The position numbers were made by a program, and so were the translations under genes. From positions 9,431 through 73,430 of the forward strand of contig CAZCVI010000029.1 of the NCBI GenBank assembly GCA_964502145.1: DNA of 64,000 nucleotides, written 5' to 3'. Under the pieces are notes generated by a model that was given only the letters and a program-made list of their open reading frames with translations, ran no database searches and was not told where the DNA came from. Shown piece by piece: positions 83 through 13,991 of the stretch. The DNA comes from an uncultured Clostridia bacterium (GTDB lineage: Bacteria > Acidobacteriota > Aminicenantia > UBA2199). Position 1 is the stretch's first letter. Each line of letters opens with the position of its first letter.

Positions 83-128
83 ATTCGTGGTCATTCGTGG
101 AAATTCGTGGGGAAGGAATCTTTTTATC
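83..128. repeat. Phased word repeat ATTCGTGG x3 (83-90, 93-100, 103-110; exact 10-bp period) followed by a GGAATCTTTTTATC box
   Basis: Read directly: gtATTCGTGGtcATTCGTGGaaATTCGTGGggaaggaatctttttatc. The same word recurs at 43008-43033. It lies 40-70 bp upstream of the -35 at 151. Confidence 0.85.
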
Positions 129-179: not shown

Positions 180-238
180 ACTAAGTGGTAACCAGTCAAA
201 GGGTTAACCGTAGGAAAACAAACCAGCGGGAGGTAACG

Positions 239-3200
239 ATGCGTCAAAAGCACAGGGGATGGGTGGCTGTTTTGGCTGTAATGATGCTCATCTGCTTTAG
301 CGGGTCTTTTTTGGCTTTTGGGCAAGAGAGCCAGCAGGAGCAATCCGAGGTGAAAGAGGAGTTATCACCAGATGAAGTGTGGGCGCAAAAAGGTGAAGAA
401 TTCTTTAAGAAGGAAGATTACCCGGCGGCCATTGAGTGCTATCATAAGGCAATTAAACTAAACCCCAAAGAGATTTCGTGGCCACTGAAGTTGTCTGATG
501 TATTGTATTCCTTTGAAAAATTTCCAGAAGCGTTACAAATATTGGATGAGGCCTGGAAGGTTTTTCCAGAGGCAGAGGATCGTAAGAAAATGAATATTGC
601 ACAGGCGGATGTCCATTTATGGTGGGGAGTACATCTGGGTAAGAACTATAAATATGCTGAGGAAATCACCCATTATGAGTTGGCCTTACCTCTATACTGT
701 GCAGTAGGAGACCGTGGGAGTGAAGCTGCCACCCTAAACAACATCGGGTTGGTGTATTATTATCTTGGTGAGAAAGAAAAAGCGTTGAGCTATTATGAGC
801 AAGTCTTACTTATATGCCGCGTTATAAGAGATCGCGGAGGTGAAGCTACCACCATGTATAACATCGGTTCGGTGTACAATGATCTTGGAGAGAAAAAAAA
901 AGCTTTGAATTATTTTGAGCAAGCTTTGCCCATCAGTCGCGCTATAGGAGACCTGAGTGGTGAAGCCAACACACTTAACAACATTGGTTCCGTGTATGAC
1001 GATTGGGGAGAGAAAAAAGAGGCATTGAACTATTATGAACAAGTATTACTCATCTATCGCTCATTAGAAAACCGCAGTGGTATAGCGATCACCCTAAACC
1101 ACATGGGGCGCGTGTATGATGATCTGGGTGAAAAAAAGGAATCGCTACACTATTATGAGCAATCATTATCACTCCGACGAGCCATAGGTGATCGCAAGGG
1201 TGAAGCGACCACCCTAAACAACATCGGTTCTGTGTATGATGACCTTGGTGATAAAGATAAAGCACTGAGTTATTATGAACAAGCCTTACCACTTCGTCGA
1301 GCTGTAAGCGATCGCGAGGGTGAAGCGACTACATTGAACAATATGGGCATATTGTACTCTTCCCTTGGAAATAAAGAAAGCGCGTTGCTCTATTATCAAC
1401 AAGCTTTACCCCTGTATCGCGCTGTAGGAGACCGCGGCGGTGAAGCCACCACCCTGAATAACATCGGTTTTATATATGATTCTCTGGGTGAGAAAGAAAA
1501 AGCACTGAGCAATTATCAGCAAGCATTACCCATTTTTGTTGCTGTAGGAGATCGCAAAGGAGAAGCCATCACCCTGAACAACATCGGTCCCGTTTATTAT
1601 GATTTGGGTGAGAAAGAGAAAGCGTTGATCTATTTTCAGCAAGCCTTACCCCTTCATCGTGCTGTGGGCGACCGCGAGAGTGAAGCCACCACCCTGAATA
1701 ACATCGGTATGGTGTATTATTCCCTGGGTGAGCAAGAGAAAGCCCTGAGCTATTATGAGCAGGCATTACCAATCTCTGTTGCTGTTGACGACCGTGCCGG
1801 TGAAGCTGTTATGCTCAGTAACCTTATGGTTCATTGGAATGACAGGAAATATGTTTCCCTGGCCATTTTTTATGGGAAACAATCCATCAATACCCGTCAA
1901 CAACTACGGGAAAATATTGTTAACTTGGACAAAGAGATTAAAAATAACTACCTTAAAACAGCAAGAGATACCTACCGCTTTCTAATTAATCTCCTCCTTA
2001 AACAACGCAGATTTGATGAAGCCCTTCAAGTTCTGGATATGCTCAAAGCCGAAGAGTACTACCAATTCATTCAGAAAGACAGTACCAACACAATTCTAAA
2101 TCTCCAATACCAACCTCCCGCTTTCACTCCTTTTGAAGCTCAATGGCAGCAACAATTTAATACCCATTTAGAAAACATATCCAAAATAAGCAACCCTCTC
2201 CATGAACTATTAATCACTAAAAAAGAAGCCGACCAAAATCGCCTCACCTCGCTGCAAAACCAACTCAACGAAGCCAATAAAGCCTATGATCAATTCCTCC
2301 TTCAATTAAAAGTTTCTTCTGCTGAATACGATCAAAAAGTAGAAAAAGGAGAAAGTATTGGTCTGAACCTTGCCTCACAACCACACTCCGTTCAATCCAA
2401 TCTCCAATTTTTGGATAAAAATGAAGAAGGCAAAAGTGTCACCCTGCACTATTATATTTTTGAAAATACCATTTATATCCTTCTCACCACTCCCAACTCC
2501 ACCATTCAAACCCTGCGGACAAGTGATTTCAATCCAGCGATACTATCCCCTTTGATTGAAAACTACAAAACCACCATTAAAGATATGAGCACACGCAGTG
2601 CTGAATCAAACAGTCCCACCCCATCCGAACTCGCCTTTTTAACTTCCACTGAACTCTATAACCTCCTTTTCAAACCCATTGAAAAAGATATCCAGGACTA
2701 CGGCGCAACGAATCTTATGGTCTATCTTGATGGCGAATTACGGTATATCCCCTTCTCTGCCCTTTATGATGGTCAACACTATCTCGTACAACGATACCGT
2801 ATTTCTCTTCTTACCACATCCAGTATGCTCCGCCTTCACGAAGAACCCACGCAGAATTTAAAAATACTGGGTTTGGTAGCCAGTAAAAGCAGTGTTGGCT
2901 TCCCTGCTCTTCCCGATGCCAAGGATGAAATCACTTCTATTGTGAAGGAGAACAGCAGCGATCACGCTGGGTTCATTGAGGGTATAGTCTTGATGGACGA
3001 AGCCTTCACCAGAGCCTCTATGTTCCAGCAGTTAAAAACCGCAGACTTTCCTCTCGTACACATTGCCAGTCATTTTAAATTCAGTGCTGAAAATGAAGCA
3101 GAGAATTACCTTCTGCTGGGGGATAAGCAAAAGTTGACCTTAAAAGATATCTACGTGGAAGATCATTTATTTCAAAAGGTAGATATGCTCGTTTTGGCCG

Positions 3201-3520
3201 CATGTCAAACCGCCATGGGCACCAGTAGCGGTGTGGAAATTGATAGTTTCGGAGAACTGGCGCAACGAAGCGGTGCCAAATGCGTGGTGGCTTCCTTGTG
3301 GAACGTGGCAGATAATAGTACCAAAGATTTGATGGTGGCCTTTTACCGGAACCTGAAAGAAAACCGTTTCACCAGTAAAATTGAAGCACTCCGTCAAGCA
3401 CAACTGGAACTGGCAGGCTTGGATGATCTTATGCTTCCCTCTCCCATTAAACGGAATAAATCAGTGTATGCCTCCCCCTACTACTGGGGACCTTTTATTA
3501 TGATGGGCAATTGGCGGTAA
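239..3520 (+). CDS. Exported TPR-repeat / CHAT-domain protease (signal peptide, ~10 TPR_12-like repeats, helical linker, C-terminal CHAT)
   Basis: ORF 185..3520; the ATG at 239 follows GGGAGG. The N-terminus MRQKHRGWVAVLAVMMLICFSGSFLAFG resembles a Sec signal. 40-aa repeats read GDRxGEATTLNNIGxVYxxLGEKxKALxYYEQALPL. CHAT His and Cys motifs are LVHIASHFKF and MLVLAACQTA. Confidence 0.85.
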   Translation: MRQKHRGWVAVLAVMMLICFSGSFLAFGQESQQEQSEVKEELSPDEVWAQKGEEFFKKEDYPAAIECYHKAIKLNPKEISWPLKLSDVLYSFEKFPEALQILDEAWKVFPEAEDRKKMNIAQADVHLWWGVHLGKNYKYAEEITHYELALPLYCAVGDRGSEAATLNNIGLVYYYLGEKEKALSYYEQVLLICRVIRDRGGEATTMYNIGSVYNDLGEKKKALNYFEQALPISRAIGDLSGEANTLNNIGSVYDDWGEKKEALNYYEQVLLIYRSLENRSGIAITLNHMGRVYDDLGEKKESLHYYEQSLSLRRAIGDRKGEATTLNNIGSVYDDLGDKDKALSYYEQALPLRRAVSDREGEATTLNNMGILYSSLGNKESALLYYQQALPLYRAVGDRGGEATTLNNIGFIYDSLGEKEKALSNYQQALPIFVAVGDRKGEAITLNNIGPVYYDLGEKEKALIYFQQALPLHRAVGDRESEATTLNNIGMVYYSLGEQEKALSYYEQALPISVAVDDRAGEAVMLSNLMVHWNDRKYVSLAIFYGKQSINTRQQLRENIVNLDKEIKNNYLKTARDTYRFLINLLLKQRRFDEALQVLDMLKAEEYYQFIQKDSTNTILNLQYQPPAFTPFEAQWQQQFNTHLENISKISNPLHELLITKKEADQNRLTSLQNQLNEANKAYDQFLLQLKVSSAEYDQKVEKGESIGLNLASQPHSVQSNLQFLDKNEEGKSVTLHYYIFENTIYILLTTPNSTIQTLRTSDFNPAILSPLIENYKTTIKDMSTRSAESNSPTPSELAFLTSTELYNLLFKPIEKDIQDYGATNLMVYLDGELRYIPFSALYDGQHYLVQRYRISLLTTSSMLRLHEEPTQNLKILGLVASKSSVGFPALPDAKDEITSIVKENSSDHAGFIEGIVLMDEAFTRASMFQQLKTADFPLVHIASHFKFSAENEAENYLLLGDKQKLTLKDIYVEDHLFQKVDMLVLAACQTAMGTSSGVEIDSFGELAQRSGAKCVVASLWNVADNSTKDLMVAFYRNLKENRFTSKIEALRQAQLELAGLDDLMLPSPIKRNKSVYASPYYWGPFIMMGNWR
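670..1830 (+). repeat. About 10 tandem 120-bp coding repeats (TPR units); boundaries approximate
   Basis: The block ggtgaagcNaccaccctRaaYaacatcggt recurs every 120 nt. It generates spurious antisense ORFs (806..1042, 1089..1292, 1569..1772). Confidence 0.8.
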
Positions 3521-3746
3521 GACAGGAGTATACAATTTTCTATGTAAATCTGTGGTGATCTTTTTCTCAGTATAATCTTGTAGCGATTTATATAGAGAAG
3601 GACCGAGATCATTACCACACACCGTACCACCCACTTTTTTTCTGGTCAGGATAGAGATCAAAAAATCTTTGATATCTGTTTTGATTGGTCTTTGTTTATT
3701 ACCAATACTATGGTATCATTAATTATTATTGTGAAAGGTATATTCT

Positions 3747-5123
3747 ATGAATACAGAATCTTGCGTTGATTTTTGTTGGAATGATTTATTGAGCTATATG
3801 GCTAAAAAGAGAGTTGTCCCTGTTATTGGAGAAGGTCTTTATTGGGTGCGAAAAAAATCAAACAGACAGGCCGGAGATTTCCTACTCTACCCATACCTTG
3901 CAAAATTATTTATTAAGGAAATGGGACTTGATAAGCAAATTTCTAATGAGATTGAAGAAACTTTTTCTCTTGCTGTATTTAGATCCCAAGAGCAAAATCC
4001 AGGAAAAGATATAGGTAATTCTGTGGATGATTTTCTTTCTGAACAATTAAACCACCTGACTCCCATTCCCAACGGACCACTATGGAAATTAGCCCGGATG
4101 AAAAACCTTGGATTGTTTATCAACACCACCCATGATAATTATCTCGAACGTATTTTGAAAAGAGTCCGAAATCATCCCGTTGAAACCATCCATTATTCAA
4201 TTAGAAAAAAATGGACGAATGAGATTGAACGCACTCTTTTTAAAAAACTGGAAGCAGGGCAATGTTCGATTATCTTTAATATTTACGGAAATGCAACCCG
4301 AAGCATTGAACCGGCCTACACAGAAAAAGATATTCTTGAGACGATTGTTTCTTTTCAAGAGGATATTTACAATGACCCAAATAATGTTTTTTTTCAAACT
4401 CTTCAAAGCTCGCATCTTTTATTTTTGGGGTGTAGGTATGATGATTGGTTGTTTCGCTTTTTTATCAGAACCATGTCCAACAAGGAATTTTCCATGCAGA
4501 AGGGGGCATTCAACAGACAGTTTATTGGAGATGACTTTAATACTTTTAGATGTGGTGACTTGTGGCGTTTTTTAAAGGCTCATTCCAGTGAAGTATTTTA
4601 TTCCGAGCGAAATGTGGCATTGGTAGATACGTTATTTGAAAAAAATTTTCCTGATCATGTTATTCGGAGGAAAGAATTCCCCAGACAAATTTTTTTAAGT
4701 TTCCATGGACAAGATCGTGAAACTGTAATCTGCTTGGCTAAACACCTACGAGAAGATGGCATCCATGTCTGGCTGGATCAATGGGAATTATCCTGTGGTG
4801 AGAATGTAGATAGAACCATAGTTGAAGCTATCGCTACCCGGCCTATATTTATCCCTATTGTATCCCACGCTACCCACGAGCTTCTATCAGGAAACGACAA
4901 TACATTAAAATATCATATTAAAGAATGGGAATGGGCTTATAGCAATCATATAAAAGGAGAAAAGCCTATTCATATCTTACCAGTAATCATCGATGATACC
5001 AAATGGATGTATGATTCATTTAAGCAATTGGTTCATTTAAAAATTCCCGGTGGTCAACGGACTGGGGATTATGAAAGACTACGATTAGGTCTGCTTGAAA
5101 TTATAGAACAGTTAGAAGGATAA
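3747..5123 (+). CDS. SIR2-like (SIR2_2/DSR-type) domain fused to a C-terminal TIR domain; no signal peptide
   Basis: The ordered motifs VPVIGEGL, INTTHDNYLE, IFNIYGN and LLFLGCRYDDW fit the SIR2_2 pattern. The C-terminus IFLSFHGQDRE...IHVWLDQWEL..GENV...IFIPIVS fits the bacterial TIR pattern. Confidence 0.75.
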   Translation: MNTESCVDFCWNDLLSYMAKKRVVPVIGEGLYWVRKKSNRQAGDFLLYPYLAKLFIKEMGLDKQISNEIEETFSLAVFRSQEQNPGKDIGNSVDDFLSEQLNHLTPIPNGPLWKLARMKNLGLFINTTHDNYLERILKRVRNHPVETIHYSIRKKWTNEIERTLFKKLEAGQCSIIFNIYGNATRSIEPAYTEKDILETIVSFQEDIYNDPNNVFFQTLQSSHLLFLGCRYDDWLFRFFIRTMSNKEFSMQKGAFNRQFIGDDFNTFRCGDLWRFLKAHSSEVFYSERNVALVDTLFEKNFPDHVIRRKEFPRQIFLSFHGQDRETVICLAKHLREDGIHVWLDQWELSCGENVDRTIVEAIATRPIFIPIVSHATHELLSGNDNTLKYHIKEWEWAYSNHIKGEKPIHILPVIIDDTKWMYDSFKQLVHLKIPGGQRTGDYERLRLGLLEIIEQLEG

Positions 5124-5127
5124 GATC

Positions 5128-8100
5128 ATGAAAATGGCCTCAACCCACTCAAATCCCTTTAAAGGTCTTAATTATTACGAGGAAGAGGATAGCAATATTT
5201 TCTTTGGACGAGAAAACGAATCCGAAGCATTGACAGAACTGGTGAAATTGAATCGGCTGACACTGGTTTTTGGGAAGTCAGGTATTGGCAAAACATCACT
5301 GCTCAATGCAGGACTTTTTCCATTGTTGCGAAAAATAAATTTTTTACCCATCCGCATCCAGTTTAATCATCTGGTTGACAGGATGTCCAGCGATGGAACG
5401 TCTCTTTTGAACCAAATCAAACAAGCGATTACCCAAGAACTCAATAAGCACGACATCTTACTTATGAAAAAGGGTGAAGATGTGACTGCTGATGCCATAA
5501 GTAATGAAGAATCATTGTGGGAGTACTTCCGCCGGGTTGATTTTAAAGCTTCTAAGCCAAATGAGAATGATCTATCCAATGGTGTGACTCCTGTTCTGAT
5601 ACTGGATCAGTTCGAGGAGTTTTTTAGACTAAAAAAACATGATCCCCAGCGGCAATTTCTTATGGATGAATTATTCTGGCTGGTAGAGGACCAAGTTCCT
5701 CCCCACATTGAAGAGAGAATTTTAAGCAAGCGAGAGAGTTATCCCTATCTCCGTGAACATCCTGTTTTTCGTGTGCTGCTTAGCTTCAGGGAAGAGTATC
5801 TGCCGCATTTGAATGAATTTAAAAAGCGGATTCCTTCACTACACCGCGTATTGTTCCAAATTACGCACTTGAATGGTCTCCAAGCCCGTGAAGTTATGGA
5901 GAAAACCGGGGCATTTTCAGATGAATCCATAAAAAAAGATATTCTGAAACAGTTTTATCCCGATGATATTGACCAAGAAAACATCTGTGAAGAAAAGCTG
6001 GAAATTGAAACCGCTTTATTCAGCTTGTTATGCGATCAGGTTTACGAAAAGGGTGTTGGTGTTCTGACCAATCAAGCCAGAGATGAAATACTAACCGAAT
6101 TTTACCAACAGACTTTATGCAAACTACCGAACTGTGAGCAATTGACTGAATGGATAGAGAACCATTTATTAACAGAAGACGGGGCTCGAACCCCCCGTGT
6201 TTTGGAACGAGATTTTTCTATGCGGCAAGGTATTGAAGCAGCCATCAATGAAAAACTCCTGCGTAAGATGTACATTGGAGAGAAAGAGCATGTCGAGATC
6301 ATTCATGATGTCTTGGCCCCGATAATTCAGCAACAGAAAGTTCAGCGGTTAGAAGAGCAGAAACGGAGATCTGAAGAGCAGAAGCGGTTAGATACTGAAA
6401 AAGATTTGGCAATGAAAAGAGAGTTACGGCAAAAACGACGATGGATGACAATTATTTCTATATGTGCCATTATTGCTGTTGCTTTTGCAATATTCGCATT
6501 TCTCCAGATGAAAGTGGCTAAAAAAAATGAGCACGAAGCCATAGCTCAAAGAATTAGGGCGGATAAAGAGAAAAAAATTGCTGATGAACAAGCCCAAAAG
6601 TTGAATGAGCAGAAAAACGTTGCACAAGAAAATGAAAAAATAGCCAAAGAAAATGAACAAAAAGCCACTGCTGAAAAAGTAAAATTGAAGCGTCTTTCAA
6701 ATGAATACGATGCTCTGAACAAGGAGGGACGGAAGTCTAATGCTCTTGGAGAAACAGAAAAAGCATTAAAAGCTTTTGGAGACGCCCTGTCAAAAGCGAG
6801 AGCCGCTGGCAACACCACATATGTAGCAGACACCCTGAACAACATCGGTATGGTGTATTCTTCCCTGGGTGAGAAAGAAAAAGCCCAGAGCTATTATGAG
6901 CAAGCCTTGTCCCTCCGACGCGCCATAGGAGACCGCGGTGGAGAAGCCACCACCCTGATCAACATCGGTAGCGTGTATTCTTCCTTGGGTGAGCAAAAGA
7001 AAGCCCTGAGCCATTATGAGCAAGCCTTACCTATAGTTCGTGCCGTAGGAGACCTTAGCGGTCAAGCCACCACCCTGAACAACATCGGTTCCTTGTATGA
7101 TTCCCTGGGTGAGAAAAAGAAAGCCCTGAGTAATTATGAGCACGCCTTACCAACCTTTGTCTCTATTGGTGACAGGCGTGGCGAAGCCACCACTCTGAAC
7201 AACATCGGTAGCGTGTATGATTCCCTGAATGAGAAAGAGAAAGCTCTGAACTTTTATGAGCAAGCCTTACCTACTTTTATAGCTGTGGGTGACCATACAG
7301 GTGAAGCCTCAGTTCTTAAAAACCTAATGAGCTTATTTAATAGTTTGAATAATAAACCAGTAGCAATTTTTTTTGGAAAACAGACTGTCAACTGTTATCA
7401 GCATCTTAGAAAAAATATCACCACCCTCTCCCAAAAGACCCAACACACCTATCTCAAATCCGTTCAAGATACCTACCACTATCTGATAGATATCTTGTTC
7501 CAGCAAAACCGCATAGGTGAAGCACTGGTGGTGACGGATATGCTCAAAGATGAAAACTATTTCAGTTTTATTCGTAGAGATCACCCCATCAGTAAAAGTA
7601 CTCCTCATTTCCAAAAAATTGACTATACTCAATTCGAACAAGAATGGTTGAAAAAATATAATGAAACTCTGAAAAATATCACCTTTGTTAGCAAGCAATA
7701 CCAGGAACTGGTTCTGGTGGCATCTAAAAATAAAAATGACCAAAATTTTCTGCATCAACTGGAGGTTCAACTAAGTGAATCCAGACGATCCTTTGAGAAG
7801 TATCTCCACCAATTAAAAAACACGGACATGTATTACCCAAAAATAAACTTTAATGAAACTGAAATCCGTTCCGTCTCTGAAAAAATCCAAGCTATTCAAT
7901 CCACTCTTCGCTATTTAGATGAAGCAGAAGGGGGCAAAAGTATTACTCTGCATTATTTTTTATCTGTTGATAAAATTAATATTATTCTTACCACACCTTT
8001 TACGCAAGTTCTTATCCCAATAACCTGCGATCAAAAGATAATGAACAACCTGATAATGACCTATCACCAATCAATTGGTAATGGTGGATATGTCCGCGGG

Positions 8101-9021
8101 GTAAAAATCTTAACGCAAAGCATGGAAGAGATTGCAGGACCAACCTCAAAAAAAATCTATGATTTCATCTTTATGCCTGTTGAGAGGGATCTCAAAAATT
8201 ATGGTGCAACAAATATTATGGTTTATCTGGATGGTGTATTACGGGATATTCCTTTCGCAACCCTTTGGGATGGTAAGAGCTTTCTGGTGCAACGTTTCCG
8301 ACTTTCTAATATTACTACATCCAGCTTACTAAATATTAAGGATGAACCCTCACCAAATTTTAAAATCCTGGGTATGGGTACACCCGAGGGTGGTCTGATA
8401 TTTGCCCCATCACCTGGTATTGCTGATGAAATCCAGGCTATCGTCAATGATAAAAGTAGTGGATACCATGGTATGATTGAGGGTAAAGTCTTGGTAAATA
8501 ATACTTTTACAAAAAATAACATGATAGCGCAACTCAAGTCTGGACAGTATCCCCTTGTGCATATTGCTAGTCATTTTCAATTCAACCCAAGTAGTGAAAA
8601 TGAAAGCTTTATGTTACTGGGAGATGGCAACAAAATGACTTTATCTGAAATTCGTAGGGAGAATAATTTATTTTATAATGTAGATATGTTGGTATTATCC
8701 TCATGCCAGACAGCAACAGGTAGCGGCAATGGCGAGGAAATTGACGGTTTCGCTGAATTAGCTCTTATAAGCGGTGCCAAATGCGTGGTGGGTTCCTTGT
8801 GGAACGTAGGAGATAACAGCACCAAAGAATTGATGGTGGCGTTTTACCAAAACCTTACGGAAAAACGTTTCACCAGCAAAATTGAAGCACTCCGTCAAGC
8901 ACAACTGGAAGTGTCCGGCTTGGATGATCTCCTGCCTGCCACTCCCATTAAACATAATAAAACAAAATATGCCTCTCCTTATTATTGGGGACCTTTTATT
9001 ATGATGGGCAATTGGCGGTAA
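5128..9021 (+). CDS. nSTAND-type P-loop NTPase - single TM helix - coiled coil - TPR repeats - CHAT protease
   Basis: N-terminus: NPFKGLNYYEEEDSNIFFGRE...LVFGKSGIGKTSLLNAGLFPLL (Walker A) and VLILDQFEEFF (Walker B). TM helix: MTIISICAIIAVAFAIFAFLQM, after KRELRQKRRW. A Lys/Glu coiled coil follows, then about 5 TPR units. CHAT motifs are LVHIASHFQF and MLVLSSCQTA. The start lies 4 nt after the upstream stop. Confidence 0.85.
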   Translation: MKMASTHSNPFKGLNYYEEEDSNIFFGRENESEALTELVKLNRLTLVFGKSGIGKTSLLNAGLFPLLRKINFLPIRIQFNHLVDRMSSDGTSLLNQIKQAITQELNKHDILLMKKGEDVTADAISNEESLWEYFRRVDFKASKPNENDLSNGVTPVLILDQFEEFFRLKKHDPQRQFLMDELFWLVEDQVPPHIEERILSKRESYPYLREHPVFRVLLSFREEYLPHLNEFKKRIPSLHRVLFQITHLNGLQAREVMEKTGAFSDESIKKDILKQFYPDDIDQENICEEKLEIETALFSLLCDQVYEKGVGVLTNQARDEILTEFYQQTLCKLPNCEQLTEWIENHLLTEDGARTPRVLERDFSMRQGIEAAINEKLLRKMYIGEKEHVEIIHDVLAPIIQQQKVQRLEEQKRRSEEQKRLDTEKDLAMKRELRQKRRWMTIISICAIIAVAFAIFAFLQMKVAKKNEHEAIAQRIRADKEKKIADEQAQKLNEQKNVAQENEKIAKENEQKATAEKVKLKRLSNEYDALNKEGRKSNALGETEKALKAFGDALSKARAAGNTTYVADTLNNIGMVYSSLGEKEKAQSYYEQALSLRRAIGDRGGEATTLINIGSVYSSLGEQKKALSHYEQALPIVRAVGDLSGQATTLNNIGSLYDSLGEKKKALSNYEHALPTFVSIGDRRGEATTLNNIGSVYDSLNEKEKALNFYEQALPTFIAVGDHTGEASVLKNLMSLFNSLNNKPVAIFFGKQTVNCYQHLRKNITTLSQKTQHTYLKSVQDTYHYLIDILFQQNRIGEALVVTDMLKDENYFSFIRRDHPISKSTPHFQKIDYTQFEQEWLKKYNETLKNITFVSKQYQELVLVASKNKNDQNFLHQLEVQLSESRRSFEKYLHQLKNTDMYYPKINFNETEIRSVSEKIQAIQSTLRYLDEAEGGKSITLHYFLSVDKINIILTTPFTQVLIPITCDQKIMNNLIMTYHQSIGNGGYVRGVKILTQSMEEIAGPTSKKIYDFIFMPVERDLKNYGATNIMVYLDGVLRDIPFATLWDGKSFLVQRFRLSNITTSSLLNIKDEPSPNFKILGMGTPEGGLIFAPSPGIADEIQAIVNDKSSGYHGMIEGKVLVNNTFTKNNMIAQLKSGQYPLVHIASHFQFNPSSENESFMLLGDGNKMTLSEIRRENNLFYNVDMLVLSSCQTATGSGNGEEIDGFAELALISGAKCVVGSLWNVGDNSTKELMVAFYQNLTEKRFTSKIEALRQAQLEVSGLDDLLPATPIKHNKTKYASPYYWGPFIMMGNWR
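6820..7330 (+). repeat. About 5 tandem 120-bp TPR-coding repeats, the same family as 670-1830; boundaries approximate
   Basis: Recurrent gaagccaccaccctgaacaacatcggt blocks. They explain the antisense ORF 6790..7023. Confidence 0.75.
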
Positions 9022-9120
9022 GACACACCTCCTCTCCTTCATTTGACCCACCAAAGGCAAAACATTTTAAACTTGCAATGCCATACGTCTTTGTTTTATA
9101 ATAAACATTCAGAGGAACAC

Positions 9121-11487
9121 ATGATTAATAAAAGCGTTTCAATAAACAATTTAATCTTTAACCACAAGAGAGTATGGATTTTAATCCTGGTGCCCTTCTT
9201 CTTTCTAAACATGAATGATATGATATTCCCCCAGACCCGACGCGCTCTGCTGGTGGGAATTTCCCAATACTCCCACTCTGAACTGACCACTTTTCCCGAA
9301 TGCAGAAAGGAAAACATAGACAACCTTCCCGGTACCGTGGCAGATATAACCAATATGAAGCAATTGCTGATGAGCCGCTTTCACTTTTTGGAGAGTGAAA
9401 TTACTGTATTGTCAGAACGTGATGCCACCCGCCAAAACATCCTACAGAATTTTAAGGAACAACTCATTGACCCTGCAAAGGAAGGCGATATCTGTCTCTT
9501 TTATTTTTCCGGTCACGGTTCCCAGATTACCAATTCCTTATCCAATCAGAGTAATAAGCAGGACGAAACACTCGTCCCGTATGACTGGTACACGGGCAAT
9601 CGTGACCTTCGCGACAAAGAGTTAAAGCGACTGTTTAACCTGGTACTCGATAAAAAAGCATATCTCACTGTAATTGTCGATGCGTGTCACAGTGGTTCCA
9701 TTGCCCGCGGCCCTATTGAAAAGGGAACCTATCGCCAAGCTCCCCCCAATCTTTGCGACGTGGCAGAACCACCAGACAATGCCCCAGACCCCGCTGCCCG
9801 CGGCGCTGTGATTCTTGCCGCTGCCCAAGAGTCGGAACTGGCCCGCGAAATTGCAGTGGATAATGTGAACGACAAGGGCAAACATTATGAAGGGTTGTTT
9901 ACCTGGGCATTGCGTTCTACCTTGTTGACCTGTTCCCCGGATGAAGCCATTCATAACGTCATGCTGCGCGTCGAAGCCTTGATGCACAGCGAAGGATTAA
10001 AACAGATAAATAAGTATAGCTTCCCAGACCTCCAAACGAAACCCGAAATACGAAACTGGCCGCTCTTTTGCCTCAAACCAGGTGAAGCGATGGGTATGGC
10101 TTTTGCGGTTAAAGCCATCCATGGAAATACTATTATTATTAATGGCGGTTTGGCTGCGGGAATTCTGGAAAACTGCGAACTGCAAAAAGCAGGGAACCCT
10201 GCTGCCCCTGTTCACGTTCGCGTATCGCAAAGCGTACAGAACCTGAATGAATGCCAAACCACTGTGTTTCAAGGTGAAGTAAAAAATATAAAAGTCGGTG
10301 ATCTGTTTACAGTTGAAAAATGGGTCATGCCCCGTGAGTCGCGGATGAGGGTCTGGTTTCCCACCGCTCCTTTTTCCGCTGCGGAATTAATGCAATTGGC
10401 CAAATCAATCACCACTCCTGAATTATTACAACAGGTGGAGTGGCTAAACGACCCCACCAGCAAATCCCCGGATTATACGATGTATTGGAACAGTTCATCA
10501 TGGCAATTATTAACCCCCAAGGGCAAGATCATCTCGCTAGGAAAAAAACCGAAAACGGATGATGTGCTGCAACAAATCAAGACCATTACTCCGCAACCGC
10601 AAGGCAAACCGCTGTTTTATTTGCAACTCCCTTTGCCTGTTTCTTTGAGTAACCAGATAAAGGAGTGTGTGCGTGCGTACCAAGACACGGTGAATATCCT
10701 TGATTCCTCCAAAGGCACTATTTATTTCCTCACCGGGCGTTGGCACCAGGAAAAACTGGAATATGCCTGGCGTGTCCCGGATGTGTTCAAAGATGAGGAA
10801 AAGGGGTTTGGCTTGCCGTTAAGAACCCAGTGGCTGGATGCCTCTTCACCGGGTGATATGGATGATATAAAAAACACGATTGTTTTTCCGCTGCGTGATC
10901 TCTTATTAAAACTGGTAAAAATCAGGGCGTGGTTGCAATTGCAAACGCCCCCACCCGCTCAGAATAGGCGTGTTTTTCCTTATGAATTGGGATTACGAAG
11001 AGTGGGAACGCAAGAGTTTAAAACCTCTGGTCCACTGTTATGTAATGACATCTACGGATTTGTGTTGCGTGCCACTGATGATATACATTCCGGGAATAAA
11101 GAAAAAAGGTATGCGTATGCCTTTATTATTGATAGTGATGGCGAAAGCAAGCTGTTGTTTCCCACTCAAGAACAGGGCAATTCAGAGAATGAATTTCCAG
11201 CTACCGATGAATGGCCGCAGGAAATTCAGATGGGTAAAAATGATTTATTTACCATAACCCCTCCTGTGGGAATGGATACCTATATTGTTTTGACCACGAC
11301 GGAAAAGATATCCAACCTCAGCGTATTTAATTTTGATGGCGTGCGATCACGTGGTGAAATCCAGTCTCCCCTGGAACGGTTGCTGGCTGATCTCAGTTCA
11401 GCCACTCGTGGAGAGGATTCCAGTTCGTCCCTTATTTCCAACTGGTCCATTAAACATATGCCTGTATTAAGTAAAAAAGAAGAATAG
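9121..11487 (+). CDS. Caspase-family (peptidase C14) protein with an N-terminal hydrophobic anchor/signal and a DUF4384-like C-terminal domain
   Basis: ORF 9043..11487; I prefer the ATG at 9121 (MINKS...). Hydrophobic segment VWILILVPFFFLNM. Motifs RRALLVGISQYS, FYFSGHGSQ (His) and VIVDACHSGS (Cys). C-terminus RYAYAFIIDSDGESKLLFP...DTYIVLTT resembles DUF4384. Confidence 0.8.
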   Translation: MINKSVSINNLIFNHKRVWILILVPFFFLNMNDMIFPQTRRALLVGISQYSHSELTTFPECRKENIDNLPGTVADITNMKQLLMSRFHFLESEITVLSERDATRQNILQNFKEQLIDPAKEGDICLFYFSGHGSQITNSLSNQSNKQDETLVPYDWYTGNRDLRDKELKRLFNLVLDKKAYLTVIVDACHSGSIARGPIEKGTYRQAPPNLCDVAEPPDNAPDPAARGAVILAAAQESELAREIAVDNVNDKGKHYEGLFTWALRSTLLTCSPDEAIHNVMLRVEALMHSEGLKQINKYSFPDLQTKPEIRNWPLFCLKPGEAMGMAFAVKAIHGNTIIINGGLAAGILENCELQKAGNPAAPVHVRVSQSVQNLNECQTTVFQGEVKNIKVGDLFTVEKWVMPRESRMRVWFPTAPFSAAELMQLAKSITTPELLQQVEWLNDPTSKSPDYTMYWNSSSWQLLTPKGKIISLGKKPKTDDVLQQIKTITPQPQGKPLFYLQLPLPVSLSNQIKECVRAYQDTVNILDSSKGTIYFLTGRWHQEKLEYAWRVPDVFKDEEKGFGLPLRTQWLDASSPGDMDDIKNTIVFPLRDLLLKLVKIRAWLQLQTPPPAQNRRVFPYELGLRRVGTQEFKTSGPLLCNDIYGFVLRATDDIHSGNKEKRYAYAFIIDSDGESKLLFPTQEQGNSENEFPATDEWPQEIQMGKNDLFTITPPVGMDTYIVLTTTEKISNLSVFNFDGVRSRGEIQSPLERLLADLSSATRGEDSSSSLISNWSIKHMPVLSKKEE

Positions 11488-11497
11488 GAGAATAAAC

Positions 11498-12679
11498 ATG
11501 AGAAGAGCAAGACATGGTTTCAGTAAAGTAGTAGTGGTATTTTTTCTAATGTTGTTTTTCACCATTGTTGGTTCTGCGCAAACAGAAGAGAACACCAAAG
11601 CCAAAGGCACCATTATTTTTAATTTCATTCAACCCGCCGCTACGGTTCCATCCCAAGGAGCACCCAATCCCGATGCCCCCCAAACCACTTCTGCCCAACC
11701 GGCCCAAACGGTTACAGATACCACCGGCCCCACCTGGTTCTTTATTCCCGGCAAAAGTTATAAAGAGATATTAACGGCATTCCAGTATAACCCCGATAGT
11801 TTTGCAAATGAACGTTCAAACATAATAAACTTTTTGAATGCCTTAAAGAAAAAATATCCCAAAGGAACAGATCGGCGCTGGTTTGGTTCCCGGGGTGATG
11901 TATTGGATGCCGTGGTATTCTATAATCCTTCAACGCCCACATCAGCAGCAGTCGCAACAACAGAGGGAAAACCGACTTGTTGCTGCTGTGGAAAACAGGT
12001 CGCGCAGGTAAATCCATCGGCACAGGAGAATCAAAAAACCATGGCGGCGAAGTTTACCTTTAAAGAGGATAAACGCAAAACCAGAATCGCAGGCGATTTG
12101 AATACCTTGATTAAATTGATTTTTAAGGTAAGTGCCAAAGGGGGAGAGGATATAACCATCGCTCAAGAACAACATACATTAAAAGAGCGTTCTGCTTTAC
12201 TGACCGTTTCCGTGAGTGTGGGCGAAAAACAAACCACTGCGGTCGTCTTAACCACTGGTCCACAAGAACATTGGTTCCTTTCTGCTGACTTGTTGGTGAA
12301 CAAGATTTCCGAGGTTAAACTGGTGGAAAAAGATAAAGTCAACACCATCGAACCCAAAGAAACACCCAAAAGCTTTTTTCTAGGAGTGAACTTTCTGTTG
12401 GGTGACATTCTTAAAGAGAAGCAGGTCTTTTGGAAGTATTTTTTTGTAAAAGGAATGCTAAAGATTTCCAAGACACCTTGGGATGGGTATGGCGTGGGGT
12501 TAGGGTTTCGTTTTCCCCAATGGCGTATCTTGGGCGTGGACATCTCTGCACTGTCCATTTTTGGCGCGATGGTGTGGACCAAGGAGGAGAACGCCGACAA
12601 GAGTGTCAAGTTCACCAAGCGGCAAATGCTAATGGGTATCAGTTACAATTTGGACAGGGCTTTGGATTGGGTTAAATAG
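11498..12679 (+). CDS. Secreted hypothetical protein: signal peptide, Pro/Thr/Ala-rich linker, CCCC motif, beta-rich C-terminal half
   Basis: AGGAG RBS. N-terminus VVVVFFLMLFFTIVGSAQ. KPTCCCCGKQ motif. Starts 10 nt after the caspase gene stop. No family recognised. Confidence 0.6.
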   Translation: MRRARHGFSKVVVVFFLMLFFTIVGSAQTEENTKAKGTIIFNFIQPAATVPSQGAPNPDAPQTTSAQPAQTVTDTTGPTWFFIPGKSYKEILTAFQYNPDSFANERSNIINFLNALKKKYPKGTDRRWFGSRGDVLDAVVFYNPSTPTSAAVATTEGKPTCCCCGKQVAQVNPSAQENQKTMAAKFTFKEDKRKTRIAGDLNTLIKLIFKVSAKGGEDITIAQEQHTLKERSALLTVSVSVGEKQTTAVVLTTGPQEHWFLSADLLVNKISEVKLVEKDKVNTIEPKETPKSFFLGVNFLLGDILKEKQVFWKYFFVKGMLKISKTPWDGYGVGLGFRFPQWRILGVDISALSIFGAMVWTKEENADKSVKFTKRQMLMGISYNLDRALDWVK

Positions 12680-12965: not shown

Positions 12966-13991
12966 ATGACGATAGATCAAAAAAGTAAAATAAAAAAGTT
13001 AATACTGGTATTATTCCTAGTGCTGTTATTTTTTCCCTTTTGTAGCGACCCGCTTCCCGTGGATCCCCCTCCGCCGCCGCCTCCCCCTCCACCGCCGCCG
13101 CCCGTATTGACCGAGCATCGGGTGCCTGTTTATTTCACCAACAATGGGTTCAGCCGCTGTGATCTTTTCACCGCGTTTCTTGTACTGGAGCCAAAAGTAA
13201 CCACCGGTGAAGAATCGGATATCAATAACTATAATGTATCTATAAAGGAAGTGGTCAATCTTACCCGTACACCGGTGGTGGATGAATTTGCCGTGGATTT
13301 TATCGCCCCGGATAAACTTCTTTTTGTAATAGCCGACGAAGGTTTGAACGATAGCAATATTGGGAACACTGAAATTGCGTTTATGAATATGTCAGATCGA
13401 ATTGTGCATCCCATCACCCCCATAAAAGGGGAATATAGCGGTGATAACTGGGACCCCCACTGGGTGGATAGTAACACCATTGTCTGGAGTCATCTGGGGC
13501 GTCTGGTGCAGTATGATTTACTGACCGGAACGATAACCGATCCCCTCATTCCCGAACTTGAAGGCGTGGTGTATGATCCGGTGTACCTTTTTCCGGCCAA
13601 AGAAAAGATTCTTTATAATGCGCGGAGATCGGGGAAAAAGAACAGTTATTCCTATTCCTTTATAACTCATGAAGAAAAGCAATGCCTCCCCCCGGCCTAT
13701 TTCAATGTATATAAAGATGATAATCCCTCGTGGTATAACGGTGAAAAAATTGTTGGTCATTACTTTGAAAATGAGCGGGGGCGTTTATATACCAGGGACG
13801 GTGACAACTTTTTAGTCATCACCGATGCCACCCATGATTTCCGTTATGTTGTGGGCACCCAAATCATCGGGCAGTGGTTTTTTGTATTTTCTGAATGGTC
13901 TGACATGGAAAATATCCGCCTATGGATGGCCAATGAAAATGGCACGTGGCTTCAAGACCTTAATCAAGGTGGTGACGAGTTGTCTTTCTAA
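12966..13991 (+). CDS. Lipoprotein with a poly-proline linker and a beta-propeller-like (TolB/PD40-like) domain; paralog of 30357..31667
   Basis: Signal plus Cys (LLFFPFCS), P14 tract, and motifs GDNWDPHWVDSNTIVWSH, GRLYTRDGDNFLVITDATHDFRYV and LWMANENGTWLQDLNQGGDE shared with the paralog. Confidence 0.7.
   Translation: MTIDQKSKIKKLILVLFLVLLFFPFCSDPLPVDPPPPPPPPPPPPPVLTEHRVPVYFTNNGFSRCDLFTAFLVLEPKVTTGEESDINNYNVSIKEVVNLTRTPVVDEFAVDFIAPDKLLFVIADEGLNDSNIGNTEIAFMNMSDRIVHPITPIKGEYSGDNWDPHWVDSNTIVWSHLGRLVQYDLLTGTITDPLIPELEGVVYDPVYLFPAKEKILYNARRSGKKNSYSYSFITHEEKQCLPPAYFNVYKDDNPSWYNGEKIVGHYFENERGRLYTRDGDNFLVITDATHDFRYVVGTQIIGQWFFVFSEWSDMENIRLWMANENGTWLQDLNQGGDELSF

Follow-up and report, generated by a model that had tools for sequence, protein, structure and literature searches.

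Each characterized member of the Avs and bNACHT families is a single protein that resides in the cytosol and binds phage proteins, the Avs chain consisting of an N-terminal effector, a STAND NTPase and a C-terminal TPR sensor. TM-bearing bNACHTs may, it has been suggested, read intramembrane or periplasmic signals (10.1101/2022.07.19.500537). In the nSTAND1-centered conflict systems, as presented in the passages of Kaur, Burroughs, Iyer and Aravind considered here (eLife 2021; PMC8195603), a PF20703 NTPase switch is combined with variable C-terminal sensor repeats and with a TIR, SIR2 or peptidase effector, and DGR-diversified nSTAND1 sensors are treated in the sections used of a further study (PNAS 2024; PMC10907252). 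In type IV Thoeris, according to the excerpt relied on here, TIR activity leads through N7-cADPR to a caspase-like protease (10.1101/2024.10.24.620036).

The locus compared with these systems lies in a 64-kb stretch of DNA, the whole of which is called the window below. It consists of five co-directional ORFs on the + strand, g1 to g5 (185/239 to 3520, 3747 to 5123, 5128 to 9021, 9043/9121 to 11487, and 11498 to 12679), and both the shared direction and the close spacing reported in a first-pass annotation of this DNA agree with the ORF coordinates, down to the individual stop/start pairs. The domain calls of that annotation are upheld by Pfam, by motifs and by AlphaFold/Foldseek modeling, and the features are these:

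239 to 3520, + strand: g1, predicted exported TPR-CHAT protease (signal peptide, Pfam, motifs)
3747 to 5123, + strand: g2, predicted cytoplasmic effector, fusion of a SIR2-like domain (aa 1-300) and a TIR domain (aa 315-434) (Pfam, AF2 model)
5128 to 6417, + strand: g3, cytoplasmic part, nSTAND1 STAND NTPase (Pfam, motifs)
6442 to 6510, + strand: g3, single TM helix, aa 439-461, WMTIISICAIIAVAFAIFAFLQM (hydropathy)
6511 to 9021, + strand: g3, ectodomain, predicted extracytoplasmic (Pfam, TM position)
9121 to 11487, + strand: g4, predicted exported or membrane-anchored metacaspase-like protease (Pfam, leader)
11498 to 12679, + strand: g5, predicted exported beta-rich protein (signal peptide ending in IVGSA and followed by QT)

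To judge from gene adjacency, the core of the region is a conserved and widespread two-gene cassette, g2+g3. In about 30 of the 42 fetched loci having downstream sequence, the next gene after SIR2-TIR encodes an nSTAND1 homolog (E 1e-84 to 1e-163), with frequent overlap of stop and start, and the same pairing is found in 4/4 distant representatives (NTPase identity 33-37%; ectodomains TPR, unknown or WD40), which supports the functional pairing of SIR2-TIR with nSTAND assumed in the first-pass annotation. The cassette is also present in Paraburkholderia caribensis MBA4, which makes it testable in a cultured organism. Neither a PADLOC v2 model nor a description in the literature was located for the pair. 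Most genes flanking the cassette have housekeeping or sensory roles, such as those for AcrB, PAS histidine kinases, tRNA synthetases and SpoIIE, and therefore lend weak support to a defense island. Some copies adjoin toxin-antitoxin and eCIS genes, and several MAGs carry two copies.

The cassette shares with the nSTAND1 conflict systems all three elements named above, and the combination of C-terminal sensor repeats with an associated effector, taken from Kaur et al. (2021), is present, the effector being separately encoded rather than fused. As far as the passages considered go, it differs from those systems in that its effector is a separate upstream gene, with no N-terminal fusion or EAD-linked partner, and in that a TM helix separates the NTPase from the sensor; neither the cassette nor a TM topology for nSTAND1 is described in the passages of PMC8195603 and PMC10907252. 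No adaptor domain shared between NTPase and effector was found. With Avs/AVAST and bNACHT proteins the cassette has in common a STAND switch and SIR2/TIR-type effectors, the SIR2-like fold of g2 resembling the SIR2 of Avs5 (9jap), but it comprises two genes, with a single-pass membrane topology and an NTPase of a different clade. Assignment to Avs/AVAST was rejected, there being no match to an Avs model in PADLOC, an effector on a separate gene and a TM helix after the NTPase.

The effector, g2, with 88 homologs, matches TIR_2 at 64.6 bits and SIR2_2 at 26.3 bits, just over the cut-off of 24.5, and its AF2 model (pLDDT 86.8) bears out the SIR2-like and TIR fusion originally called: the N-terminal half matches the folds of ThsA (8btp, E 2e-11), KomC, Avs5-SIR2 and SIR2/HerA, and the C-terminal half matches TIR structures. 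Its best fold matches in the SIR2-like half are filament-forming SIR2 proteins; sequence profiles of this region recovered no solved SIR2. While the SIR2 Rossmann fold is thus present, the catalytic Asn and His appear to be missing. The motifs FINTTHD and IYG stand where canonical SIR2 proteins have TTNYD (or TQNID) and HG, and in the family alignment, with positions set by motif and predicted-strand register rather than by residue-level structural superposition, the canonical Asn position is occupied by T in 25 and A in 15 of 43 sequences and the canonical His position by Y in 28 and F in 14 of 43 (F/L in distant members), Gly181 being invariant across the alignment. E393 of the TIR domain is conserved without exception, in 43/43 sequences as well as in distant members, and alignment places it on the catalytic Glu of solved TIRs, including the Glu of the Cat1 WxxE motif; fold and conserved Glu together are those expected of a TIR NADase or signal synthase. 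The description of g2 as a double NADase is therefore doubtful, given the family-wide replacement of the canonical SIR2 residues, and the SIR2-like domain is probably an assembly or nucleotide-binding scaffold, a SIR2 fold that seems to have become a partner of TIR without catalytic activity of its own. Effectors of this type also occur fused to Roc-COR GTPases, as expected if the effector is portable among NTP-dependent switches. Type I Thoeris, in which ThsB (TIR) and ThsA (a SIR2 or TM effector with a SLOG or Macro sensor) are separate proteins, likewise unites TIR with a ThsA-like SIR2 fold in one system, and weak matches to ThsB HMMs were seen, but in g2 the two domains are fused, the SIR2 Asn and His are missing and the partner is a STAND NTPase. 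This candidate was rejected, no SLOG or Macro domain being found by Pfam and no ThsA model being matched in PADLOC even at E<=1.

The partner, g3, begins with its NTPase module, without an N-terminal effector domain. The module matches PF20703 at 95.6 bits (cut-off 27.1; aa 10-271), a family also matched by the relatives checked. Its representative relatives number 23,733 (1,328 at E<=1e-30), and both Walker motifs are intact, A as GKSGIGKT (K55) and B as VLILDQ (D160). The TM helix, preceded by KRELRQKRR, has a hydropathy of 2.81 over 19 aa and leads into a juxtamembrane coiled coil (aa 462-545), TPR repeats (about 546-760; TPR_12 is also matched), a linker and a CHAT domain (1006-1295; Pfam 196.4 bits) with the motifs HIASH (H1145/H1149) and CQT (C1193). 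The entire nSTAND-TM-coiled coil-TPR-CHAT architecture proposed at first thus stands on Pfam, motifs and hydropathy. Every full-length partner and 118/136 nearest representatives likewise have one TM helix directly behind the NTPase, with 7.5 K/R in the N-terminal flank and 4.1 K/R in the C-terminal flank, which is also basic. Hydropathy and this charge bias, on which the topology is based, favor the trans-membrane layout already suggested for g3. A sensor located outside is further supported by the family from which the TPR-CHAT part derives, as a crude heuristic finds a signal-peptide-like N-terminus in 26/63 of its full-length members.

What follows the TM helix is variable. WD40 was found in 18/18 other partners checked, and further nSTAND1 representatives have ectodomains that are TPR, BTRD1 or unmatched to any known domain. 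In one pair of loci (L017 and L019), the effectors are 86% and the NTPases 88% identical, and the ectodomains only 28%. In g3, the position occupied by WD40 propellers in relatives is taken by the coiled coil, TPR and CHAT, so that an entire TPR-CHAT protease of the g1 family appears to have taken over from the usual ectodomain. Among the 150 nearest nSTAND1 representatives, the window copy is the only one with a CHAT ectodomain, and none of the 171 CHAT homologs of its TPR-CHAT part carries nSTAND1, each being a stand-alone TPR-CHAT protein. This uniqueness, along with the fact that all the fusion copies seen come from one organism, would fit a chimera created during assembly or a gene in decay, the real arrangement being a WD40-less cassette and a separate TPR-CHAT gene. 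We regard this as very improbable: g3 is an uninterrupted ORF of 1297 codons with Walker A/B, TM helix, TPRs and CHAT dyad all intact, its juxtamembrane coiled coil is common to close relatives, and a Logan contig (L001) that was assembled separately and seen in 3 samples has the identical nSTAND1-TM-TPR-CHAT junction.

The stand-alone protein of the locus, g1, has an ORF that opens at GTG 185, and its start is most likely ATG 239, which is preceded by a GGGAGG Shine-Dalgarno sequence. Its N-terminus is a hydrophobic leader, with the signal peptide MRQKHRGWVAVLAVMMLICFSGSFLAFG followed by QE, and it matches TPR_12 (338 bits, about 8 TPR_12 units) and CHAT (198.6 bits), with the motifs HIASH (H941/H945) and CQT (C989), which agrees with its prediction as an exported TPR-CHAT protease. 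Both g1 and g3 thus have the profile and the His/Cys dyad of CHAT (clan CD) proteases. The similarity of g1 to the g3 ectodomain (50.7% identity over 775 aa) is matched by that of outside homologs (52%), and g1 appears to be an ordinary member of the large stand-alone TPR-CHAT family, many members of which are apparently exported. One relative in this family adjoins CHASE2 and a second TPR-CHAT. A TPR-CHAT of the Craspase type (Csx29), which is associated with a type III-E CRISPR effector and array, was also considered and rejected: none of 4,227 Rfam models, presumably including the CRISPR repeat families, matched anywhere in the window, no sequence match to solved Csx29 chains was found, and for g1 the signal peptide also disfavors this assignment.

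The remaining genes, g4 and g5, appear to be an independent conserved pair, separate from the cassette. The profile and the His-Cys dyad of Peptidase C14 are both found in g4 (83.5 bits, domain aa 40-304; SGHG, H132, and DACHSG, C189), it matches PDB metacaspases, metacaspase-9 among them, at E 4e-13, its middle region is conserved and its N-terminus is a hydrophobic leader. The caspase dyad and hydrophobic N-terminus of the earlier description are thereby confirmed; the DUF4384-like tail (aa 659-728) scores 22.6-23.2 bits, below the Pfam cut-off of 27. As to g5, it has no Pfam, PADLOC or NCBIfam match, and its AF2 model, of low quality (pLDDT 62.7), matched no known fold significantly. Its signal peptide stands as called, and the CCCC motif noted with it falls in a window-specific insertion that is absent from 13/13 homologs (35-43% identity). 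These homologs always follow a g4-like caspase and never occur near TIR, STAND or CHAT, and full-length g4 homologs with cleavable signal peptides lie directly upstream of g5 homologs in L044, L045/L046 and L047.

The first-pass annotation had taken all five genes for one candidate system. Their conservation as a unit is not borne out, as SIR2-TIR loci occur without CHAT, caspase or g5 (no homolog of any of the three in 42 SIR2-TIR loci) and g4-g5 loci without TIR, STAND or CHAT; g1, g4 and g5 keep this company only here, an outcome that the annotation itself had named as refuting its proposal. Conservation of neighborhoods instead suggests that the island is a composite, made up of three modules inherited separately, A (g2+g3), B (g4+g5) and C (g1), and the co-location of B and C with A may reflect a shared, unconserved theme of envelope proteases. 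Given the shared direction and tight spacing of the five genes, all three modules may co-operate in this lineage, and along the lines of the first-pass annotation a single trans-envelope system can be imagined in which the exported g1 CHAT, the tethered g3 CHAT and the exported g4 caspase with g5 would form a periplasmic proteolytic cascade, which the nSTAND NTPase would sense or control and which would be coupled to NAD+ depletion in the cytoplasm. In its favor are also the export signals or TM tether carried by all three clan-CD proteases, the physical fusion of a g1-family protease to the STAND switch in g3, and precedents for processing of PCaspase by SAVED-CHAT and for TIR-to-caspase signaling (cited in the excerpt of 10.1101/2024.10.24.620036 used here). 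We nevertheless consider it unlikely: no other locus among those with SIR2-TIR or with g5/g4 unites the modules, an AT-rich gap of 226 nt separates g1 from g2, the 99-nt gap before g4 (start 9121) contains a promoter-like site (9073-9102) and an AGGA ribosome-binding site, and g1 is no nearer to g3 than outside homologs are.

Two parallels to such a system, type IV Thoeris and the type III CRISPR SAVED-CHAT/PCaspase systems, resemble the locus in bringing TIR, CHAT and caspase-like proteases into one neighborhood, and provide a precedent for nucleotide- or cascade-activated clan-CD proteases. However, they are cytosolic, while the caspase and CHAT domains of the window have export signals or are placed on the far side of a TM helix, and therefore could not be directly reached by a cytoplasmic TIR product. 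Moreover, type IV Thoeris is a conserved operon of two genes, for a short TIR protein and a cytosolic caspase-like protease, while the TIR-caspase adjacency in the window is not conserved. Type IV Thoeris was rejected as an assignment, as g4 has an export leader and its homologs have cleavable signal peptides, and as there are loci with g4-like genes but no TIR, and with SIR2-TIR genes but no caspase.

Overall, we favor, with fair though far from complete confidence, a composite island whose core is a trans-membrane STAND receptor that senses outside and activates TIR inside. In such a receptor, the ectodomain would read a ligand or an event in the periplasm or envelope, the signal would cross the membrane and drive NTP-dependent oligomerization of the STAND modules, the oligomer would nucleate assembly of the SIR2-like-TIR protein, and the clustered TIR domains would break down NAD+ or produce a signal nucleotide, with arrest of growth or death as the outcome. 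Because WD40 is replaced by TPR-CHAT, the window copy may use TPR-CHAT as its sensor, perhaps one that pairs with free g1, or may also switch on extracytoplasmic proteolysis by induced proximity. A role in defense or abortive infection is suggested by domain precedent.

A different and rather improbable reading has no immune or death system here at all, the TM-nSTAND1 proteins being envelope signal transducers in development, surface remodeling or nutrient/stress sensing, the SIR2-like-TIR protein not a suicide NADase but a regulator or a synthase of signaling nucleotides, and g1 and g4-g5 ordinary secreted proteases that serve feeding or the turnover of proteins. The mainly housekeeping or sensory neighbors of the cassette, the CHASE2 sensors beside TPR-CHAT relatives, the doubled cassettes of several MAGs and the lack of a match in the phage collection or of a model in PADLOC would all agree with this. 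However, every bacterial case characterized so far of a TIR domain with the catalytic Glu, an effector of SIR2 fold or a STAND NTPase is part of a conflict system (family knowledge; Kaur et al., 2021, PMC8195603, in the passages considered), ectodomain swapping between near-identical cassettes, as in L017 and L019, is typical of receptor diversification, and toxin-antitoxin and eCIS genes are found beside some copies.

Returning to the trans-membrane STAND receptor, a more specific and only tentative proposal is that the cassette serves as a bacterial trans-membrane pattern-recognition receptor, in which an interchangeable extracytoplasmic domain, WD40, TPR or, in the window, TPR-CHAT, detects an attack on the envelope and STAND relays it through the membrane to a TIR enzyme of suicide or alarm. 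Possible attacks include phage adsorption, tail penetration, secreted toxins, and a competitor's protease or protease inhibitor, and the window copy would be a protease-baited or protease-armed version that works together with the exported clan-CD proteases beside it. The likeness to animal Toll-like receptors, by analogy only, lies in an extracellular repeat sensor, one TM helix and a TIR output inside; unlike in those receptors, there is no homology of the sensors, an NTPase switch is interposed, and TIR resides on a separate, probably enzymatic protein.

For experiments, the practical lesson is that the presumed five-gene system of the window is better split into its three modules beforehand. 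The cassette itself represents a natural experiment in sensor swapping, with WD40, TPR and CHAT ectodomains on one chassis. To our knowledge, the bacterial STAND/NLR-like immune sensors characterized so far detect phage proteins in the cytoplasm. A large family with the sensor outside and TIR inside, counting 1,328 representatives at E<=1e-30 and having the TM helix in most of the 150 closest, would, if real, open the prospect of envelope surveillance before, or without, genome entry, and the cassette would then present a deep functional parallel to Toll-like receptors, in its logic a prokaryotic hybrid of Toll-like receptor and NLR.

Five plus-strand open reading frames occupy window positions 185-12679 with the spacing given by the first-pass annotation, and its account of the genes, their intervals and their catalytic motifs was borne out, with three small corrections. 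The genes, with their Pfam matches, are:

g1: ORF opening at GTG 185, likely start ATG 239; plus strand; signal peptide, about eight TPR_12 repeats, CHAT (198.6 bits)
g2: 3747-5123; plus strand; TIR_2 (64.6 bits) and SIR2_2 (26.3 bits)
g3: 5128-9021; plus strand; nSTAND1 (95.6 bits), hydrophobic segment at aa 439-461, charged coiled coil, TPR_12 repeats, CHAT (196.4 bits)
g4: ATG 9121-11487; plus strand; hydrophobic leader, Peptidase_C14 (83.5 bits), DUF4384-like tail below cut-off
g5: 11498-12679; plus strand; signal peptide, without a family match

The g1 start is most likely ATG 239, eleven bases 3' of GGGAGG, rather than GTG 185, and the protein predicted from it opens with a signal peptide of classic form (MRQKHRGWVAVLAVMMLICFSGSFLAFG, then QE). 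Pfam recovers the CHAT, TIR_2, SIR2_2, nSTAND1 and Peptidase_C14 calls, with SIR2_2 barely above its cut-off (24.5 bits), but not the DUF4384 call for the g4 tail (22.6-23.2 bits, cut-off 27 bits). In motif checks, Walker A K55 and Walker B D160 of g3 are both intact, as are the catalytic H132 and C189 of g4, and HIASH and CQT are kept in the CHAT domains of both g1 and g3. For g5, Pfam, PADLOC and NCBIfam searches returned no family match, and its CCCC motif, earlier taken for a feature of the protein, sits in an insertion peculiar to the window and missing from all homologues, which speaks against a function. A search of the window against Rfam gave no matches. On the 5' side of g1 and of a promoter-like site (151-179), and adjoining them, lie three direct copies of ATTCGTGG (window 85-117; attcgtgg tc attcgtgg aa attcgtgg), which could be a regulator-binding array. 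The product of the downstream gene g6 (12966-13991) begins with a hydrophobic leader, also contains a poly-proline stretch and matches no family; the gene has a paralogue 17 kb downstream (30357-31667, E 2e-69).

As to the proposal that these genes make up one system, the genomic contexts of their homologues point to separate modules. Homologues of g2 (n=88), equal in length and architecture and 26-61% identical, come from MAGs of Aminicenantes/Acidobacteriota, Omnitrophota, Planctomycetaceae and Deferrimicrobium. When all ORFs of 42 loci around such homologues were compared with the domain pieces of seven window genes, the gene directly 3' of SIR2-TIR was homologous to the g3 NTPase (E 1e-84 to 1e-163) in every locus with downstream sequence (about 30), frequently with a stop/start overlap, and no homologue of the g1/g3 CHAT, the g4 caspase, g5 or g6 was found in any of the 42. 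When 1.84 billion cluster representatives were searched with the g3 NTPase module, the 23,733 relatives returned included 1,328 at E<=1e-30. Four representatives with 33-37% NTPase identity have C-termini that are TPR, unknown or giant WD40, and in all four the gene directly 5' codes for a SIR2_2+TIR_2 protein of 448-462 aa. Another example is presented by Paraburkholderia caribensis MBA4, a cultured soil betaproteobacterium, whose 2.56-Mb replicon (NZ_CP012748.1, about 378-381 kb; locus L054, 6725-10344) carries an unannotated SIR2-like-TIR gene followed by an unannotated nSTAND gene, the product of which has a TM helix near residue 433 and a short ectodomain of about 210 aa. This linkage, in about 30 loci, in four of four distant representatives and in MBA4, argues that the SIR2-like-TIR and nSTAND1 pair is a broad, old two-gene cassette.

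A third conserved gene was sought by all-vs-all clustering and rejected, as neighbours were patchy, the best family occurring in 8 loci. In 8 loci the cassette is flanked, on both sides in some, by members of one protein family that are 365-457 aa long and match nothing in Pfam (L006 4289-6934, L007 7960-9102, L011 4897-6015 and 11406-12515, L021, L023, L042 8549-9922 and 15216-16331); the only member read completely begins with a signal peptide. A second family, of about 170 aa, accompanies the first in 4 loci, the inspected member (L006) having a CxxC motif. In the periplasm, both could act as partners of the WD40 ectodomain or as its ligands. Four MAGs carry two diverged SIR2-like-TIR copies each, mostly differing in partners or ectodomains (L012/L005 in JBLMYT01, L003/L009 in JAPKZK01, L002/L010 in JAUPLE01 and L008/L011 in JAGLQA01), which suggests a receptor repertoire diversifying within genomes.

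A different association is seen for g4 and g5. Among the 13 homologues of g5 (35-43% identity), all contexts retrieved (L044, L045/L046 and L047) have the g5-like gene directly 3' of a full-length g4 homologue (protease 1e-79 to 1e-88, middle 1e-57 to 1e-69, tail 1e-35 to 1e-39), frequently with one or two extra Peptidase_C14 paralogues, some with Lcl_C, and these loci contain no TIR, SIR2, nSTAND or CHAT. By these contexts g4 and g5 are evidently a second, independent module, and with the two sets of loci each lacking the partners of the other, the five genes do not hold together as one conserved unit. In g4-like proteins the signal peptide ends just ahead of a shared QTRRALLVGI, and the protease of g4 is metacaspase-like (E 4e-13). 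The g5 model is poor (AF2, pLDDT 62.7) and beta-rich, and Foldseek returned nothing significant with it, only scattered outer-membrane barrels at E>0.07; an outer-membrane beta-barrel would be a guess. In L044 (2585-11011) and L045 (3497-10716), two or three genes for large, paralogous Peptidase_C14 proteins stand in an array that a g5 homologue closes. Lcl_C domains are present in two of the L044 trio, and L045 has an Lcl_C protein immediately before its array; this module of exported caspases expands by tandem duplication.

The 99-nt gap 5' of g4 contains TTGCAA-18-TATAAT and an AGGA ribosome-binding site, a hint of separate transcription that is only suggestive, because the promoter/terminator scan of the region gave counts at chance level (30 vs 30.1; 13 vs 14.2). 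Two identical-looking 'terminator' hairpins (3473-3490 and 8974-8991), one at each CHAT C-terminus of g1 and g3, were dismissed as a scan artefact, being the conserved coding sequence for SPYYWGPF.

The remaining gene, g1, is a third module, separate from g2+g3 and from g4+g5. Its closeness to g3 (50.7% identity over 775 aa) is no better than that of outside homologues, so that a recent local duplication of g1 into g3 was rejected, and the two TPR-CHAT regions represent one family rather than recent local copies. Of 63 full-length family members, 26 have a signal-peptide-like N-terminus by a crude heuristic; many of the rest begin within a TPR, suggestive of truncated gene calls. One g1-type homologue (P0115) adjoins a second TPR-CHAT gene and a CHASE2 protein, with no cassette there.

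By its sequence, the NTPase of g3 is a genuine nSTAND1 under the definition given in PMC8195603. The full-length nSTAND partners in the fetched loci have exactly one strongly hydrophobic segment each, of 19-23 residues, located at aa 405-465 and directly following the NTPase module; g3 likewise has one (aa 439-461), and a TM helix follows the NTPase in 118 of the 136 closest representatives that are 520 aa or longer. The 15 residues N-terminal to the helix contain on average 7.5 K/R (net +5.5), and the C-terminal 15, also basic, 4.1 K/R (net +2.1). Because the N-terminal flank is the more basic and the NTPase requires cytoplasmic NTP, we infer an N-in/C-out orientation. The trans-envelope STAND/TIR arrangement proposed earlier for all five genes is therefore retained for g2 and g3, by virtue of the conserved TM helix, and not as a five-gene system.

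The ectodomain is variable. All 18 other partners that were checked have a WD40 propeller there, and among the closest representatives it is WD40 (about 70), TPR (about 6), BTRD1 repeats or nothing recognisable, CHAT being found in g3 only. Since the nearest g3 relatives (56-62% NTPase identity) carry WD40 or propeller-like domains, the TPR-CHAT ectodomain is, by comparison, a derived state. In one pair, L017 and L019, the effectors are 86% and the NTPases 88% identical, versus 28% for the ectodomains, and such swaps are recurrent in the cassette. An assembly artefact as the origin of the g3 fusion was rejected: the ORF is uninterrupted and the junction is repeated in a separately assembled contig, in three samples. 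Residues 761-1297 of g3 matched 171 proteins (best 52% identity); the 120 matches listed of these are all TPR-CHAT proteins that stand alone, 600-940 aa long and without PF20703. A domain that comes from a family with many exported-looking members, and sits behind a TM helix, gives independent support for an outside location.

As to the effector, the AF2 model of g2, built from 43 sequences, is confident (pLDDT 86.8, pTM 0.78). Its N-terminal half matches ThsA (8btp, E 2e-11; 7uxt), KomC, the Avs5 SIR2, SIR2/HerA and FAM118B, and its C-terminal half many TIR structures. In a profile alignment to solved TIRs, E393 (KYHIREWEWAY) aligns with the WxxE Glu of Cat1, and this position is E in 43 of 43 sequences and in distant cassettes, including that of Paraburkholderia. 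The profile of the SIR2-like domain (A2) gave no PDB hits even at E<=10, and for this reason its catalytic register was mapped by motifs and AF2-predicted strands, not by superposition, using the motifs known for sirtuins and ThsA. The motif closing the second Rossmann strand is FINTTYD, and the position of the catalytic Asn of TQNID/TTNYD, two residues ahead of an invariant Asp, is occupied by T (25 sequences) or A (15); the strand expected to end in HG ends in (Y/F/L)G, the Gly being invariant. In g2 the two positions would be T128 and Y180, against N112/H152 in ThsA (6LHX) and, for the His, H146 in KomC. With the canonical Asn and His replaced in this register and the TIR Glu invariant, the 'double NADase' of the first-pass annotation is unlikely. 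The domain has near-invariant motifs of its own, PAYTEKDILET and LLFIGCGYDDWLFRFFIR, and its top structural neighbours are filament-forming SIR2 assemblies; TIR enzymes require oligomerisation. We read it as a possible scaffold or ligand-binding module, non-catalytic or non-canonical.

The SIR2-like-TIR part behaves as a portable effector of NTP-dependent switches, with fusions to Roc-COR GTPases occurring in L005 and L022 as well. These are C-terminal Roc-COR-A-COR-B fusions (L005 505-3780; L022 415-3777, with a weak SduA_C match too), and that of L005 still precedes a TM-nSTAND1-WD40 gene, giving two NTP switches in one cassette. In L009 (9128-11347), L010 (155-2365), L030, L032 and L033, an N-terminal extension of about 280 aa (total about 737 aa), with weak TPR matches in L009, L010 and L030, precedes SIR2-like-TIR, and no nSTAND gene lies downstream; a protein of about 790 aa without Pfam matches follows in L009, L010 and L030, L009 adding a 1471-aa protein. 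A phage collection search found no g2 relatives.

No description of a SIR2-TIR and TM-nSTAND1 pair was found in the literature, PADLOC v2 gave only generic TIR or P-loop matches for g2 and g3, and NCBIfam offered nothing system-specific. Envelope-facing STAND sensors are not a new idea, as TM-bearing bacterial NACHT proteins have been suggested as readers of membrane or periplasmic signals (10.1101/2022.07.19.500537) and periplasmic sensor domains are discussed in DGR papers (PMC10907252). For Thoeris types I and IV and for Avs, the diagnostic features that were checked are absent from the locus. Unlike in type IV Thoeris (10.1101/2024.10.24.620036), the caspase here is exported, and a cytoplasmic TIR product could not reach it directly. 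Those of Craspase-type TPR-CHAT are likewise absent, in a comparison limited to Rfam and to solved Csx29 chains (no match in either).

The observations are the linkage of the genes, the identity of their domains, the conservation of the TM helix, the variability of the ectodomain and an invariant TIR Glu; alongside these, a mechanism may be outlined, in which an extracytoplasmic cue would be read by the ectodomain and would license NTP-dependent oligomerisation of the cytoplasmic STAND modules; the oligomer would template SIR2-like-TIR assembly, TIR active sites would form, and NAD+ would then be consumed or a signal nucleotide made. In g3, the whole TPR-CHAT ectodomain may serve as a sensor, through pairing with free g1, for instance, or through being targeted by a foreign inhibitor or protease; or it may be a second effector, switched on outside by induced proximity.

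In conclusion, the locus appears to be a protease-bearing variant, unique to the window, of a widespread, uncharacterised trans-membrane STAND/TIR cassette, lying in what seems an island that it shares with two further modules, both of exported clan-CD proteases. We consider this modular reading and the mechanism outline, taken together, somewhat probable. For the cassette family, the MBA4 copy provides a tractable model organism.
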